Origin: Octopus sinensis
Taxonomy: Eukaryota
DNA length: 64,000 nt
Assembly: GCF_006345805.1 (NCBI RefSeq)
Contig: NC_043002.1
Coordinates: 87,854,001 to 87,918,000, forward strand
Reading direction: 5' to 3'
Below the pieces are notes generated by a model. The model searched no databases. It was not told the DNA's origin and worked only from the letters and a program-made list of their open reading frames with translations. Of this stretch, positions 1,633 to 59,803 are shown piece by piece; positions within the stretch are counted from its first letter, which is position 1; every line of letters begins with the position of its first letter. Both the position numbers and the translations under genes were made by a program.

Positions 1633-1688
1633 TGTATGTATGTATGTATGTATATTCATATGTTTGCACTATGTATCTATGTATATAT

Positions 1689-2010
1689 GAAGGTGCTTGG
1701 CTTGGTGGTTAGGGGCATTCGGCTCATGATTGTAAGGTTGTGAGTTCAATTCCCGGCGACGCGTTGTATCCTTGAGCAAGACACTTTAATTCACGTTGCT
1801 CCAGTCCACTCACCTGGCAAAAATGAGTTGTACCTGAGTTGAAGGGCCGGCCTTGTCACACTCTGTGTCACGCTGACTCTCCCTCAGAACTACGTTAGGG
1901 GTACACGTGTCTGTGGAGTGCTCAGCCACTTGCACGTTAAATTCACGAGCAGGCTGTTCCGTTGGTCGTATCAGCTGGGACCCTCATCGTCGTAACCGAC
2001 GGAGTGCTAT
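1689..2010 (+). mobile_element. tRNA-derived SINE family C
   Basis: A-box TGGCTTGGTGG, B-box GAGTTCAATTCC, then tccttgagcaagacacttt; antisense copy at 56515-56810. Confidence 0.85.
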
Positions 2011-5412: not shown

Positions 5413-5467
<55 letters not shown>

Positions 5468-5588
5468 CAATTAAGGAACGGCCATAATAGGCCATTCACC
5501 CACTAGAATAACAGCCAAAGCTTCTACTACCCGCAAATAAAGATTAATTCCGTAAACAGGAGAAAATTAAAAAAACATTTACCCTGTA

Positions 5589-5696
5589 ATTTCTTGTACG
5601 GTATACCGTTTCATCCGCTGTTTAATGGTAAACTAACCTGATTAAATTAAATCAAGCTAATCTTCCATAAGCCCTCGGATTCTTCAAGCAAGAAAT
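5589..5696 (-). ncRNA. Type I hammerhead ribozyme copy (1-nt insertion in core)
   Basis: Same fold as 6522-6628; core reads CTTGAAGA. Confidence 0.7.
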
Positions 5697-6081
5697 AGCT
5701 CAAGTCGGAACAGATATTTACACGAGGCATACCCAATCTTGCCAAGGCAATATCTGACCTAAAATTTTCAAATCGTCGCACTCGCGCCAAACCAAATTTA
5801 TCGGCAGCAAATAATATCAGCCGTCGATTCCATTACGGAATTAACCAAAAATTCATAATTAATCAATATAGGGTGGCAAGGAAAATTTTGTAGAATTTTA
5901 TTGCCACCAGCGGCCCAGTAGGAAAAGATTAATAGTCATAGACCATTTTTAAGTTCAACATTAACAATTAAGGAACGGCCATAATAGGCCATTCACCCAC
6001 TAGAAATAACAGCCAAAGCTTCTACCGCAAATAAAGATTAATTCCGTAAACAGGAAAAATTAAAAAAACATTTACCCTGTA

Positions 6082-6188
6082 ATTTCTTGTACGGTATACC
6101 GTTTCATCCGCTGTTTAATGGTAAACTAACCTGATTAAATTAAATCAAGCTAATCTTCCATAAGCCCTCGGATTCTTCAGCAAGAAAT
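6082..6188 (-). ncRNA. Type I hammerhead ribozyme
   Basis: Reverse complement of the 6522-6628 motif with intact core. Confidence 0.88.
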
Positions 6189-6521
6189 AGCTCAAGTCGG
6201 AACAGATATTTACACGAGGCATACCCAATCTTGCCAAGGCAATATCTGACCTAAAATTTTCAAATCGTCGCACTCGCGCCAAATTTATCGGCAGCAAATA
6301 AATATCAGCCGTCGATTCCATTACGGAATTAACCAAAAAATTCATAATTAATCAATATAGGGTGGCATGGAAAATTTTGTAGAATTTTATTGCCACCAGC
6401 GGCCCAGTAGGAAAAAATTAAATAGTCATAGACCATTTTTAAGTTCAACATTAACAATTAAGGAACGGCCATAATAGGCCATTCACCCACTAGAAATAAC
6501 AGCCAAAGCTAAACTTGAGCT

Positions 6522-6628
6522 ATTTCTTGCTGAAGAATCCGAGGGCTTATGGAAGATTAGCTTGATTTAATTTAATCAGGTTAGTTTACCATTAAACAGC
6601 GGATGAAACGGTATACCGTACAAGAAAT
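6522..6628 (+). ncRNA. Type I hammerhead ribozyme
   Basis: Stem I ATTTCTTG/CAAGAAAT; CTGAAGA; stem II ATCCG/CGGAT; GAAA; palindromic stem III ACGGTATACCGT; GUA site, predicted cut after 6620. Confidence 0.9.
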
Positions 6629-7011
6629 TACAGGGTAAATGTTTTTTTAATTTTCTCCTGTTTACGGAATTAATCTTTATTTGCGGTAGAAGCTTTGGCT
6701 GTTATTTCTAGTGGGTGAATGGCCTATTATGGCCGTTCCTTAATGTTTGATGTTGAACTTAAAAATGGTCTATGACTATTTAATTTTTTCCTACTGGGCC
6801 GCTGGTGGCATAAAATTCTACAAAATTTTCCTTGCCACCCTATATTGATTAATTATGAATTTTTTGGTTAATTCCGTAATGGAATCGACGGCTGATATTT
6901 ATTTGCTGCCGATAAATTTGGCGCGAGTGCGACGATTTGAAAATTTTAGGTCAGATATTGCCTTGGCAAGATTGGGTATGCCTCGTGTAAATATCTGTTC
7001 CGACTTGAGCT

Positions 7012-7118
7012 ATTTCTTGCTGAAGAATCCGAGGGCTTATGGAAGATTAGCTTGATTTAATTTAATCAGGTTAGTTTACCATTAAACAGCGGATGAAACG
7101 GTATACCGTACAAGAATT
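7012..7118 (+). ncRNA. Type I hammerhead ribozyme
   Basis: Array copy; CTGAAGA at 7020, predicted cut after 7110. Confidence 0.87.
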
Positions 7119-7499
7119 ACAGGGTAAATGTTTTTTTAATTTTCTCCTGTTTACGGAATTAATCTTTATTTGCGGTAGAAGCTTTGGCTGTTATTTCTAG
7201 TGGGTGAATGGCCTATTATGGCCGTTCCTTAATGTTAATGTTGAACTTAAAAATGGTCTATGACTATTTAATTTTTTCCTACTGGGCCGCTGGTGGCAAT
7301 AAAATTCTACAAAATTTTCCTTGCCACCCTATATTGATTAATTATGAATTTTTTGGTTAATTCCGTAATGGAATCGACGGCTGATATTTATTTGCTGCCG
7401 ATAAATTTGGCGCGAGTGCGACGATTTGAAAATTTTAGGTCAGATATTGCCTTGGCAGATTGGGTATGCCTCGTGTAAATATCTGTTCCGACTTGAGCT

Positions 7500-7609
7500 A
7501 TTTCTTGCTGAAGAATCCGAGGGCTTATGGAAGATTAGCTTGATTTAATTTAAATTAACAGGTTAGTTTACCATTAACAGCGGATGAAACGGTATACCGT
7601 ACAAGAAAT
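7500..7609 (+). ncRNA. Type I hammerhead ribozyme
   Basis: Array copy; CTGAAGA at 7508, predicted cut after 7601. Confidence 0.87.
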
Positions 7610-7988
7610 TACAGGGTAAATGTTTTTTTAATTTTCTCCTGTTTACGGAATTAATCTTTATTTGCGTAGAAGCTTTGGCTGTTATTTCTAGTGGGTGAAT
7701 GGCCTATTATGGCCGTTCCTTAATTGTTAATGTTGAACTTAAAAATGGTCTATGACTATTTAATTTTTTCCTACTGGCCGCTGGTGGCAATAAAATTCTA
7801 CAAAATTTTCCTTGCCACCCTATATTGATTAATTATGAATTTTTGGTTAATTCCGTAATGGAATCGACGGCTGATATTTTTTGCTGCCGATAAATTGGCG
7901 CGAGTGCGACGATTTGAAAATTTTAGGTCAGATATTGCCTTGGCAAGATTGGGTATGCCTCGTGTAAATATCTGTTCCGACTTGAGCT

Positions 7989-8095
7989 ATTTCTTGCTGA
8001 AGAATCCGAGGGCTTATGGAAGATTAGCTTGATTTAATTTAATCAGGTTAGTTTACCATTAAACAGCGGATGAAACGGTATACCGTACAAGAAAT
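7989..8095 (+). ncRNA. Type I hammerhead ribozyme
   Basis: Array copy; CTGAAGA at 7997, predicted cut after 8087. Confidence 0.88.
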
Positions 8096-8471
8096 TACAG
8101 GGTAAATGTTTTTTTAATTTTCTCCTGTTTACGGAATAATCTTTATTTGCGGTAGAAGCTTTGGCTGTTATTCTAGTGGGTGAATGGCCTATTATGGCCG
8201 TTCCTTAATTGTTAATGTGAACTTAAAAATGGTCTATGACTATTTAATTTTTTCCTACTGGGCCGCTGGTGGCAATAAAATTCTACAATTTTCCTTGCCA
8301 CCCTATATTGATTAATTATGAATTTTTTGGTTAATTCCGTAATGGAATCGACGGCTGATATTTATTGCTGCCGATAAATTTGGCGCGAGTGCGACGATTT
8401 GAAAATTTTAGGTCAGATATTGCCTTGGCAAGATTGGGTATGCCGTGTAAATATATGTTCCGACTTGAGCT

Positions 8472-8577
8472 ATTTCTTGCTGAAGAATCCGAGGGCTTAT
8501 GGAAGATTAGCTTGATTTAATTTAATCAGGTTAGTTTACCATTAAACAGCGGATGAAACGGTATACCGTACAGAAAT
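8472..8577 (+). ncRNA. Type I hammerhead ribozyme
   Basis: Array copy; CTGAAGA at 8480, predicted cut after 8570; 1-nt deletion in stem I. Confidence 0.82.
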
Positions 8578-8811
8578 TACAGGGTAAATGTTTTTTTAAT
8601 TTTCTCCTGTTTACGGAATTAATCTTTATTTGCGGTAGAAGCTTTGGTTGTTATTTCTAGTGGGTGAATGGCCTATTATGGCCGTTCCTTAATTGTTAAT
8701 GTTGAACTTAAAAATGGTCTATGACTATTTAATTTTTTCCTACTGGGCCGCTGGTGGCAATAAAATTCTACAAAATTTTCCTTGCCACCCTATATTGATT
8801 AATATATATAT

Positions 8812-14949: not shown

Positions 14950-14980
<31 letters not shown>

Positions 14981-14990
14981 CATACATATA

Positions 14991-15029
<39 letters not shown>

Positions 15030-15182
15030 TCATATACATTATATATATATACATATACATATATATATATACATATATACATATACATATACATATATAT
15101 ACATATACATATATATATATATACATATACATATATATATATATACATATATACATATACATATACATATATATACATATAC

Positions 15183-15240
<58 letters not shown>

Positions 15241-15247
15241 TATATAT

Positions 15248-15294
<47 letters not shown>

Positions 15295-15332
15295 ATATAT
15301 ATATATATAATATATATATATATCATATATAT

Positions 15333-15765
15333 AATTTATCAATATAGGGTAGCAAAAAAAATTCAAGAAAAATTTTCTGCAACCAGCGGTCAAGTGAGAA
15401 AATAGAAATAGTCACAGACTATATAATATATTCAACAAATATGGCACGGTTACGTTGGATTTCGAAAAATTAGGATATATACACTCGGGGCTTCAATGGT
15501 ATCGCCTCGTGTGTATATGTTCGCCTTTTCTTTTGGAGACTTTGCTGATGAAACAAGCCAATCGTAAACGGATTTAATTTAATTTAATTAAGTTCGATTG
15601 CATAAAAATTGTTGAAACCTTGCAGGGTACAAAGTTGAAAAGGACAAATGTTTTTATTTCTCCTTTAGCTTTCAGAATTACTACTATTTTTGCGGTTTTG
15701 AGTTTGGCTGCTCTTTTCAAGTGAGTTGAACGACCTGTAAGGGTCTTTCCTTAATATTTTGTATA
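15333..15765 (+). mobile_element. HHR element family 2, copy 1
   Basis: ~430 bp; alignable to the 490-bp unit; near-identical to 16110-16542. Confidence 0.85.
15538..15636 (+). ncRNA. Type I hammerhead ribozyme
   Basis: GACTTTG-CTGATGA-AACAA...TTGTT-GAAA-CCT-tgca-GGG-TA-CAAAGTT; predicted cut after 15629. Confidence 0.88.
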
Positions 15766-15782
15766 CATATATATATATATAC

Positions 15783-15868
<86 letters not shown>

Positions 15869-15957
15869 CATATTATATATATACATATACATATATATAT
15901 ATAATATATATACATATACATATACATATATATACATATACATATATATATATATAC

Positions 15958-15992
<35 letters not shown>

Positions 15993-15993
15993 C

Positions 15994-16100
<107 letters not shown>

Positions 16101-16109
16101 CATATATAT

Positions 16110-16542
16110 AATTTATCAATATAGGGTAGCAAAAAAAATTCAAGAAAAATTTTCTGCAACCAGCGGTCAAGTGAGAAAATAGAAATAGTCACAGACTATA
16201 TAATATATTCAACAAATATGGCACGGTTACGTTGGATTTCGAAAAATTAGGATATATACACTCGGGGCTTCAATGGTATCGCCTCGTGTGTATATGTTCG
16301 CCTTTTCTTTTGGAGACTTTGCTGATGAAACAAGCCAATCGTAAACGGATTTAATTTAATTTAATTAAGTTCGATTGCGTAAAAATTGTTGAAACCTTGC
16401 AGGGTACAAAGTTGAAAAGGACAAATGTTTTTATTTCTCCTTTAGCTTTCAGAATTACTACTATTTTTGCGGTTTTGAGTTTGGCTGCTCTTTTCAAGTG
16501 AGTTGAATGACCTGTAAGGGTCTTTCCTTAATATTTTGTATA
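16110..16542 (+). mobile_element. HHR element family 2, copy 2
   Basis: Duplicate of 15333-15765. Confidence 0.85.
16315..16413 (+). ncRNA. Type I hammerhead ribozyme
   Basis: Same fold as 15538-15636; predicted cut after 16406. Confidence 0.88.
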
Positions 16543-16559
16543 CATATATATATATATAC

Positions 16560-16628
<69 letters not shown>

Positions 16629-16649
16629 ATATATACATATAATATATAC

Positions 16650-16732
<83 letters not shown>

Positions 16733-16760
16733 ATATATATATATACATATATATATATAC

Positions 16761-16804
<44 letters not shown>

Positions 16805-16835
16805 ATATACAGTGTGTGTGTATAAATACTCACAC

Positions 16836-17115
16836 GGGTATATGGCGTAGTGGTTAAGAACGCAGGCTACTCACTCCAAGATTCCGAGTTCGATTCCGGG
16901 CAGTGACCTGGATAATAATAATAATAATAGCAACATCGAAAATACCGTAGGAATGAGAACCCAGGTTCGAAATTTCCCCAAGACACCTGATGAAGGCTGG
17001 AGGGTATATCAGCCGAAACGTTGTGTTAACAACAAACAAGATGAGGGTAAATATCAATCAGATATAAATAATATAAATAATGTACATAATTCCTCATCTC
17101 TTAAATGTAGAACTG
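16836..17115 (+). mobile_element. tRNA-headed SINE-like element carrying an HHR
   Basis: A-box TGGCGTAGTGG (16843), B-box GAGTTCGATTC (16886), (ATA)n linker, HHR downstream. Confidence 0.8.
16982..17027 (+). ncRNA. Minimal PLE-type hammerhead ribozyme
   Basis: GACAC-CTGATGA-A-GGCTG-loop-CAGCC-GAAA-CG-TT-GTGTT; palindromic ACGT in place of stem III. Confidence 0.82.
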
Positions 17116-17334
17116 AACTCACACATATCTACTAGTTTATACAAGCTGTTAAAAATGATGGCAACTTACGTATGAGAAATAAGCTGAAAATCGGTACTGC
17201 ATACATTTCATATATTTCGTGTGCATTTGTTATAACACATATTCTCGCTCGGTTCTGATCAAAGTTAATTTTCAACAGTCGTATATTTTTATCAATAATC
17301 AATGTTGCATGTATTTCATACATATATAATATTA

Positions 17335-56319: not shown

Positions 56320-56810
56320 TCTGATTTAGGCACAAGGCCAGCAATTTTAAGGAGTAGGTATTAGTTGATACCATCGTCCCTAATGCTTGACTAATACTTT
56401 ATTTTATCGACTCCGAAAGGATGAATGACAATTGACTTTGGTGGGATTGGAATTCAGAACGTGATGAACCGGAATACATACATACTGTGAATGCAACATA
56501 GAGAGGGAGAGGAGCACTCCGTCGGTTACGATCAACGGAACAGCTTGATCGTGAAATTAACGTGCAAGCGGCTGAGTACTCCACAGACACGTGTAACCTT
56601 AACGTAGTTCTTGGGAAGACTCAGCGTGAAACAGAGTGGAACAAGGCTGGCCCTTTGAAATACAGGTACAACTCATTTTTGGCAGCTGAGTGGACTGGAG
56701 CAATGTGAAATAAAGTGTCTTGCTCAACGACACAACGCGTCGCCGGGAATTGAACTCAAAACCTTACGATCGTGAGCCGAATGCCCTAACCACTAAGCCA
56801 CGCGCCTTCA
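56320..56810 (-). mobile_element. SINE A fragment and SINE family C copy
   Basis: Antisense to 1689-2010 over 56515-56810. Confidence 0.85.
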
Positions 56811-58050: not shown

Positions 58051-59803
58051 TGGGAGAATTCACAAAAAAAAACAAAAGACGAAGACAGGTGGTGTAGACA
58101 ACAAACAGATGTATTAGTATAACGCTCGGGAAGTGAAATAGTCTAACGTTTCGAGCCCACGCTCTTCCACAGAGAGGAACACAGAAAGAAACAAGGAGAG
58201 AAAATATAGAATGTGTAGTGGCTAGCGAGCTATCATGACGAATGCCGGACAGAAGGGTCACACAGGAGAGTTAGGGAGAAGAGGAGATAATAAAGTAGTG
58301 GTGATCCCAAAATGAAGGTATAAGAGAGTTTGTATGTGCGTGTCGAAGAGGGCTGGTGATCGTAACATGTGTGTGTATGTGTAGGTGTGAAAATGTGGGT
58401 CTGAGAAGTGGTCAGTGTTGATGTGTTCGTGGTGGTATGTTGTGATGTGATGTGCTATGTGGTATGGTGGTGTAAGGTGTAGTGGTGTGTGCTGTGGTGT
58501 GATGGTGTTGGGATATGGGGGAGGCGAGAGTGAGGAAAGCAAGGGTGGGGTGTGGGTTAGGCTGAGGATGGAGGTAGAGGTGGGGTATGTGGGAGTGGGT
58601 GTAAGGGATAGTGTGGGTGGGATGGGGAAGGATAGGGAAGTGGGGGTGGAATGTGTAGGGATGGGGTGGGCTTACGAGGGGGGAAAAAGAAAGTGGTAGG
58701 AGTGAAGAGAAGACAGGAGAGTAGGAGTGAAGAGAAGTAGGAGTCGGAGCAAGAGAGGAGAGGTGAATGGGAGGAAGTAGGTATGAGGGGGAGAGAGGCG
58801 AGGGGAGGAAGTTAGATGAAGAGGGGCGGAGAGTTGAGCCCATGTGACGCAAAAGAGCGAAGAGAGAAGATGAATCCCTGTTCACGGCGTAAGCGGGAGT
58901 CCTGATGGCCCCTGAGCGAGGACAATCCGAACACAGACAGGTGTTGCAAAGAGTGACCGGTAGAACGAAAATGGCGCGAGACCGGGGTGCCATTGGCGAG
59001 TCCAATGTCGTGGAGATGTTCCGAGAACCGGTCAGCCAAGCGACTTCCCGTTTGCCCGATGTATAGAGAAGGGCAGAGGGCGCAGGAGATGCAGTAGATG
59101 ATATTGGTAGAAGTGCAGGTGAAGAAGTCGGTGTTGTGATAGGGTCGATGATGGGTGCCGGTGAGGAGGGTGGTGTTGGAGAGGTATGGACAAGTGCGGA
59201 AGCGTGGGTGGGAGCAGGGGAACGAGCCGGGTTGGGATGTTAGGGTTAGGAAAGAAGCTGTAGACCAAGTGATCTCGTATATTGTGGGCTCGTTTGAGAG
59301 GAGGAGTCGGTTAGGGAAGATGTGCGAGGTGGAGGGATCGGACTGGAGTCGCCGAGAGGCTCGGAGATGGTGCGTTGGAGAGTAGAGTGGTGGGTGGTAG
59401 GTGATGTGAAATGGGAGGCGAGAGACGGTGGAGCGGGTTCGGGGGAGAGATCAGAGGCACGGCCCACAAAACGTGCTCTGGCAAAGGCGGTGTGGATAGT
59501 GGTGAGGAGATATCCACGTAGGATGAAGTGGCGAGCCATGAGTTGAGACTGAGTCTCAAAGTTATGGTCGTCACTACAGAGCCTGCGTACACGGAGGAAT
59601 TGGGAATAGGGGATGGAAAGCTTGGTGTGTTTAGGGTGGGATGAAGAGAAGTTGAGGTATAAGTGTGAGTCTGTGTGTTTGTAGTGGCTGGAGGTGGTGA
59701 GAGTGGAGGGATGAATGCTGACCGAAATGTCAAGAAAGGAGACAGAGGTGTCAGAGATAGTGCAGGAGAAGTGGAGGGCAGGATGGAAAGATTTGACAAA
59801 AGA

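Follow-up and report, generated by a model that had tools for sequence, protein, structure and literature searches.

A tRNA-headed octopus retroposon family with a minimal hammerhead, a candidate SINE of a Penelope-like element

Positions 16,836 to 17,116 of a 64,000-nt stretch of Octopus sinensis DNA (the window) hold one copy of an abundant, co-linear octopus repeat family, in which a tRNA-like head, a linker, a minimal hammerhead motif and a tail follow one another between defined ends. This composite retroposon, here called family A, is dispersed and present in high copy number, and it has sister families, here called B, C and D. Judging from its sequence features, we consider it moderately probable that family A is a SINE that is transcribed by RNA polymerase III (Pol III) and copied by the reverse transcriptase (RT) and endonuclease of a Penelope-like element (PLE).

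Architecture of the element and its neighbourhood

The element opens with a tRNA-like head (16836–16911, on the + strand, as are all of its parts), the predicted type 2 Pol III promoter region, which is marked out by a rise in contig depth and by its alignment with positions 56736–56805 of the window. Consensus matches to the A box (16843–16853) and the B box (16888–16896) lie at this 5' end with the spacing of a tRNA and are followed by an (AAT)n linker of variable length with its border (16912–16938), in which an (ATA)n run can be read at 16912–16929. The minimal type I hammerhead motif (16982–17027), with a predicted cut after 17022, is composed of stem I (16982–16986 with 17023–17027; 5 bp, one of them G-U), the sequence CUGAUGA (16987–16993) and one extra A at 16994, stem II (16995–16999 with 17010–17014; 5 Watson-Crick pairs plus a G-U), the GAAA at 17015–17018, an ACGU palindrome without a loop III, and the GUU at 17020–17022 as the predicted cleavage site. 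These features match those given in the accessible part of PMC4209133. The 3' tail (17028–17116) contains a hairpin (17038–17046 with about 17091–17099) and has a sharp end, and a frame of 54 codons, open in the window copy, runs from an ATG across hammerhead and tail (16953–17114). The A and B boxes, the (ATA)n linker, the minimal hammerhead, the palindrome and the GUU had been reported in a preliminary description of this DNA, and all were found again at the same positions. To these parts we add an 8-bp target-site duplication (TSD) with identical letters at 16828–16835 and 17117–17124, which encloses the whole head-linker-hammerhead-tail unit; 181 of 20,000 random flank pairs do equally well by chance.

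A strict minimal-hammerhead descriptor, composed after the motif had already been seen, gave one match in the window and none in 100 block-wise dinucleotide shuffles. A pattern of A and B boxes gave two window matches, in the element and in a SINE at 56.8 kb, and none in the same 100 shuffles. Neither a hammerhead nor a tRNA match was returned by Rfam for 16836–17116, even at E ≤ 10, and ARAGORN called zero tRNAs in the head. The head aligns without gaps to the tRNA-like head at 56736–56805, which meets the Rfam tRNA cut-off, and it is because of this alignment and of the A and B boxes, with no Rfam or ARAGORN match of its own, that the head is labelled tRNA-derived. The folding z-scores of the element are ordinary (−0.3 to −0.9, not significant), and two copies of it co-fold with intermolecular pairing in the computation. 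No T4 run is present within the element, the first being located at 17269. A second, imperfect B-box-like word is found at 16964–16975, just 5' of the hammerhead and inside the putative coding frame, and is also seen in sisters B and C.

Other repeats lie in the same window. Units of about 490 bp, two of them inverted and five direct, form an array at 5463–8803 beside (TA)n. Each unit bears a type I hammerhead-like motif in which stem I has 8 bp, a long hairpin replaces loop II and stem III is a palindrome of 12 nt; the array resembles one made of PLE pseudo-LTRs or retrozymes from a different family. A tandem duplicate of a related element is located at 14977–16809, its units at about 15331–15753 and 16108–16530 each being bounded by (TA)n and carrying a hammerhead-like motif of similar long-stem type, with cores at 15545 and 16322, and the SINE at 16836 begins just after the second of them. 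Another tRNA-headed SINE family is represented at 56527–56810 (− strand) and 1688–1970 (+ strand) by copies that are 88% identical, and its head reaches the Rfam tRNA cut-off.

A high-copy octopus family and its sisters

Within the 64-kb window, a second copy of the 16836–17116 element was not found. The evidence on copies comes from contigs of sequencing runs placed on the element, namely three runs of the DNA type and a fourth (X15) that was taken as RNA by guess and in which element sequence is likewise present; part of the stretch is present in 20 of the 21 runs listed. The three DNA-type runs place 39,222, 23,702 and 14,433 contigs on the element, and contig depth is 52–60 or 0 in the unique flank, whereas it reaches millions inside the element. 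Depth summed over contigs does not translate into a number of copies, for which hundreds of distinct 3' flanks set the floor. Family A has at least hundreds of copies, and tens of thousands are likely. Contig coverage starts near 16836 and stops at 17115, where 246, 249 and 222 contigs of the three DNA-type runs exit into unrelated flank without poly(A), and the 3' end of the family likewise carries no simple or tandem-repeat tail. The border of the linker is marked by loose ends before 16939 that are (TAA)n; the four runs contribute 307, 230, 158 and 32 such contigs. In run X1, 64 contigs at 17072 hint at an alternative 3' end that would fall short by about 25 nt.

The join between head and hammerhead is bridged by divergent contigs (X1-1, 16840–16988, with 22 differences; X1-2, 16865–17013, with 20; X15-17, 16866–16990). 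Bridging records differ at 13–22 positions, and the bridging by X12-9 is borderline. The preliminary description had allowed that the two parts might be adjacent only at this locus. Bridging copies, one TSD round both parts and three sister families with the same plan argue against this, and the head-hammerhead junction occurs in many co-linear copies. Contig depth over the hammerhead part exceeds that over the head about fivefold, a gap that is expected because of 5' truncation and of the divergence of the window copy in its head. Among the 40 of 75 variants listed, one ribozyme variant lies at the free position N7 and one makes the first stem II pair G-U at a CpG.

The frame of the element matches gene models of O. 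sinensis, O. vulgaris and O. bimaculoides. The O. bimaculoides dystrobrevin model (P0032) begins, as read from its translation, with a deleted copy that joins the head to hammerhead stem II. In this model (dystrobrevin beta) and in P0003, a cysteine-rich receptor-like protein, a copy of the element forms the first exon, and both exit near 17059 in the tail, a common exit point that suggests a splice donor there. An exact 28-mer of the element had zero matches in metagenome or viral contigs. A degenerate B-box-plus-hammerhead pattern led to six metagenome loci, none of which is family A: four are PLE-type ends with inverted arms, in which the B-box match is incidental, and one is bacterial coding DNA. 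The remaining locus, on an AT-rich contig (L006, about 780–990, − strand), is a real-looking organellar-type tRNA gene with a minimal hammerhead-like motif about 80 nt further on.

Sister B came to light through a phmmer search with the frame of the element, and at the DNA level the genome collection contained it a single time, within low-GC animal DNA of about 514 kb in MAG G001. An A/B-box head, a related hammerhead and a tail are present in sister B (C52:20998–21347), sister C (C16:334018–334287) and sister D (C16 near 347.8 kb), and the order head-hammerhead-tail is kept by four families in two animals. The animal DNA of G001 and the window have only diverged repeats in common. The G001 contigs C16, C52 and C61 are chimeric, with bacterial DNA of 64% GC joined to about 514 kb of animal DNA of 35% GC. 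A TSD is seen at the window copy and at one sister-C insertion, and none is clear at the B and D copies. The sister-C insertion consists of an inverted truncated arm with a full tail and a full head-bearing arm with a short tail, both inside an 11-bp duplication; an inverted arm is present in sister D too, and another G001 locus, the third, is an inverted pair without a head. In seven hammerhead copies of the four families, 84% of cells pair, against 20–46% in slid controls, and 4 of 11 pairs have changed on both sides. This covariation is modest, coming from seven related copies, and 11 of 500 shuffles reach its score and 53 of 500 its pair count. The heads of B (L007 4868–4968), C (L028 14018–14105) and D (L029 7975–8072, − strand) are longer by 10–21 bases in the anticodon region, the place of introns in tRNAs, and are possibly derived from unspliced tRNA genes.

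The frame at 16953–17114 is also open in an O. bimaculoides copy (P0004), and in-frame ATGs occur in sisters B and C as well, the ATG lying 40–130 nt behind the head in A, B and C; in sister D the frame is not open and has been lost. In family A, this frame is likely a relic of a Penelope ORF start. Family B matched 159 longer proteins, of which the best 120 were taken as the sister-B set. In 5 of these 120, the sister-B tail runs on past its usual end into one common ORF of 100–150 residues, and P0073 shares its starting codon with the frame of a full-length B copy before it enters the common ORF. This ORF is putatively the Penelope/Poseidon N-terminal domain. Searches of Pfam, Atlas, the PDB, viral contigs, plasmids, phages, BFVD and the Craig supplement did not identify it. 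Long helices are predicted after its residue 59 at low confidence (mean pLDDT 50), and the N-terminus of the anole Poseidon is likewise helical according to the accessible text of PMC11167929. Head-to-tail hammerhead-tail units of about 43 codons are found in 11 of the 120 proteins; these tandems leave out the head, and their junction matches a short repeat common to the 3' end and to the bases before stem I. A sister-B protein with an RT fragment soon after the tail was set aside, as it is better read as an insertion into another element.

Penelope marks, proposed mechanism and rival readings

Family A ends 93–94 nt past its predicted hammerhead cut. The corresponding distance is 88 nt in sister B, 118 nt in sister D and 93 nt in a PLE remnant of the window with a GIY-YIG match. 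This remnant (58052–59803, − strand), which is 5'-truncated and lies in (TA)n, comprises an RT C-terminus, a CxxC linker, the GIY-YIG (a weak match, E 0.002, below the Pfam cut-off), a pyrimidine-rich 3' UTR and a pseudo-LTR with a variant minimal hammerhead; going by its linker, it is presumably Neptune-like. In the anole Poseidon, as described in the accessible text of PMC11167929, the cut lies at +26 and the RT start at +111–118 of the ORF, which gives a cut-to-start distance of 85–92 nt. The same text places the hammerhead over the start of the ORF, and reports that cleavage is dispensable for insertion, that RNA to +172 is required and that binding depends on about 55–60 nt beyond the start site. 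The anole RNA of figure S1 in that paper closes in codons translated as ESLRQHIE, which resembles the ends KFRQL of B, KYRQI of C and KYRT of A. A short stem I, an extra nucleotide before stem II and a palindromic 15.2–16.2 are given as features of the minimal PLE hammerhead in the accessible part of PMC4209133; the motif of family A is likewise a minimal type I hammerhead with the extra nucleotide before stem II and the palindromic 15.2–16.2. The Fig. 2 legend of PMC8557442, the portion of that paper used here, describes an inverted truncated arm abutting the 5' end, with a tail at one end only, as a PLE pattern. In family A, an inverted truncated arm lies against the 5' end of the head at two of the 15 joints listed (16833/16990 and 16838/16876, both in run X9). 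The contig tables have 111 joints in all, and of their 1,277 loose-end rows 24 were listed. Inverted arms that bear tails occur in families A, C and D.

The suggestion of the preliminary description that the element is mobilised by a PLE rather than by a LINE has thus gained several independent Penelope marks, and the part of it that called for a PLE sharing 16930–17115 was left without a counterpart, since an RT-coding partner was not found in the protein searches. A phmmer search with the frame of the element returned 42 proteins, one of them an unrelated ankyrin protein, and an RT or GIY-YIG joined to the family A tail was seen in 0 of the 42 and in 0 of the single hit among longer proteins. 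With two window queries, no PLE ORF was found in G001. The PLE remnant of the window was rejected as the mobilising partner, its hammerhead and tail being different, and serves as a comparator only.

In the mechanism that we favour, Pol III would start at 16836 and read beyond the 3' end of the element. The 3' part of the RNA, putatively derived from the pseudo-LTR and ORF start of a Penelope/Poseidon-type PLE, would be bound by the PLE protein, and reverse transcription would begin at an internal site some 90 nt downstream of the hammerhead cut, leaving a sharp 3' end without poly(A). Copying would proceed toward the 5' end, would often halt early and would sometimes add an inverted second arm. 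Such a course would account for the abrupt 3' end as well as for the truncated 5' ends and the arms in inverted orientation. The hammerhead would be mostly silent in the copied RNA, because a cut at 17022 would split the promoter from the start site, and its folding may need a partner RNA or protein. If the rule of the anole element holds, ordinary copies would be dead ends, and the sources would be rare copies that extend into the ORF.

A variant of this mechanism places the head in the autonomous PLE itself, as a tRNA-like promoter captured in its pseudo-LTR, so that the short copies would be solo pseudo-LTRs reaching from the internal RT start to the Pol III start; mobilisation would be the same and the source alone would differ. 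Such an origin would fit the constant head-hammerhead-tail order of four families in two animals, the in-frame ATG behind the head in A, B and C, and the protein P0073, which begins at a codon of the full-length B frame and continues into the common ORF. However, Pol III RNAs carry no cap and terminate at T runs, which would make them unsuitable as a 3-kb mRNA, the heads of the families differ by inserts of 10–21 nt, and no common sequence upstream of 16836 is seen among the contig rows listed. We regard this variant as rather unlikely when taken by itself, and we hold it probable that either it or the favoured mechanism is correct. An ordinary LINE-mobilised SINE, whose body would be an inert PLE fragment and whose last tens of bases would be recognised by the LINE, appears unlikely. 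Octopus is rich in both SINEs and LINEs (PMC13282606), an 8-bp TSD also suits LINE endonucleases, and the protein searches yielded no PLE partner; against these points stand a 3' end that lacks a poly(A) or tandem-repeat tail and fits the start-site distance of a PLE, the tail-bearing inverted arms of A, C and D, and the B tail that goes on in frame into the common ORF.

The other proposal of the preliminary description, a retrozyme that had gained its own promoter, has not fared well. Under this scheme, cleavage of dimers would release unit-length RNAs that circularise and undergo rolling-circle reverse transcription, as has been proposed for Sm-alpha and for non-LTR retrozymes. The palindromic ACGU, the intermolecular co-folding of two copies and the tandem units in 11 of the best 120 of 159 sister-B proteins are what it would lead one to expect, but the window copy is single in a dispersed family, and its 5' end lies at the promoter and its 3' end 93 nt beyond the cut, so that neither is a cut site; cleavage at 17022 would moreover separate the promoter from the 3' end. 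The B tandems lack the head, and slippage at the short repeat explains their junction. Minimal hammerheads cleave poorly (accessible text of PMC4209133), and the anole Poseidon inserts without a need for cleavage (accessible text of PMC11167929). We view the retrozyme as very improbable. That a SINE head and a PLE end-piece came to be nested by chance at one locus is hardly credible, even though both kinds of sequence are common in the window and the hammerhead part is so much deeper than the head: hundreds of contigs show the linker ahead of 16939, a single TSD surrounds both parts, the sister families repeat the plan, and the divergent contigs across the join refute the idea unless they are assembly chimeras.

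Relation to known elements and significance

The closest precedent for family A, on which the preliminary description was silent, is the schistosome Sm-alpha, which together with Sj-alpha was reportedly described by Ferbeyre in 1998 and by Laha in 2000. According to the accessible part of PMC6765202, these SINE-like retroposons have a Pol III promoter followed by a hammerhead, and they share with family A the make-up of a short non-coding repeat in which a type I hammerhead follows a Pol III-type promoter. Compared by description and within the same part of that paper, Sm-alpha and Sj-alpha are tandem and possess canonical cleaving hammerheads with a helix III loop, the ribozyme freeing unit copies, whereas family A has a minimal PLE-type hammerhead without loop III, dispersed copies and ends that are not cut sites. 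A PLE partner of Sm-alpha or Sj-alpha is not named in the accessible text of PMC6765202.

With the pseudo-LTRs and solo end-pieces of Penelope/Poseidon and Neptune, family A shares the minimal hammerhead with its extra nucleotide and palindrome (PMC4209133, accessible part), and with PLE pseudo-LTRs it shares an end about 90 nt past the cut and an ORF start overlapping the ribozyme (PMC11167929, accessible part) as well as inverted truncated arms with a tail at one end only (PMC8557442, Fig. 2 legend). In contrast, family A opens with a tRNA-like A/B-box head, and such a head is not mentioned for PLEs in the accessible portions of these three papers. Animal non-LTR retrozymes, which are short and non-coding and carry a type I hammerhead, have been proposed to be non-autonomous PLE derivatives (accessible parts of PMC7229834, PMC7761336 and bioRxiv 10.64898/2026.07.22.740005). 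In the same sources they are tandem repeats without promoters that give circular RNAs, whereas family A has a promoter-like head and is mostly dispersed. Retrozymes are recognised by tandem hammerhead units and the lack of a promoter, neither of which applies to family A, tandems being found only in part of sister B.

Octopus itself is said to have yielded the tRNA-derived SINEs OK, OR1 and OR2, described by Ohshima and Okada in 1994. When compared by description, not by sequence, these share with family A a tRNA-like head, a length of about 280 bp and a very high copy number in Octopus, and family A may already be catalogued as a plain SINE, be it as OK, OR1 or OR2 or in Repbase or Dfam. OR2 is called a CORE SINE in the accessible part of PMC4758252. 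In the searchable full-text literature, a scope that leaves subscription journals, Repbase, Dfam and SINEBase outside, no tRNA-headed PLE-driven SINE besides the Sm-alpha precedent was found, and a hammerhead or ribozyme in an octopus SINE is not described; the words 'hammerhead' and 'ribozyme' are absent from the text and supplement of a 2026 octopus repeat annotation.

A broader hypothesis, which we put forward tentatively and consider possible rather than probable, is that a PLE lineage has long been paired with tRNA-type Pol III promoters in several animals, giving rise to a class of PLE-driven SINEs. In its boldest form, the promoter would reside in the pseudo-LTR of the autonomous element, SINE-like solo copies would be shed by internal priming, and Sm-alpha and some retrozymes would be offshoots. 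According to the textbook rule, SINEs are mobilised by LINEs with which they have the 3' end in common. If the favoured reading of family A is true, a tRNA-headed family would be driven by the telomerase-related Penelope enzyme, which would extend the SINE rule to a third retroelement class and would explain one large octopus SINE expansion. Most of the recently active octopus SINE families are unclassified (PMC13282606). In gene models of O. sinensis and O. bimaculoides, and as far as such models go, the family also feeds host genes, which take a copy as their first exon. For PLE biology, the family would provide a short natural substrate with which to address the RT start site, the RNA needed for binding and the role of the minimal hammerhead, and its 280-nt Pol III RNA would be directly testable with purified PLE protein.
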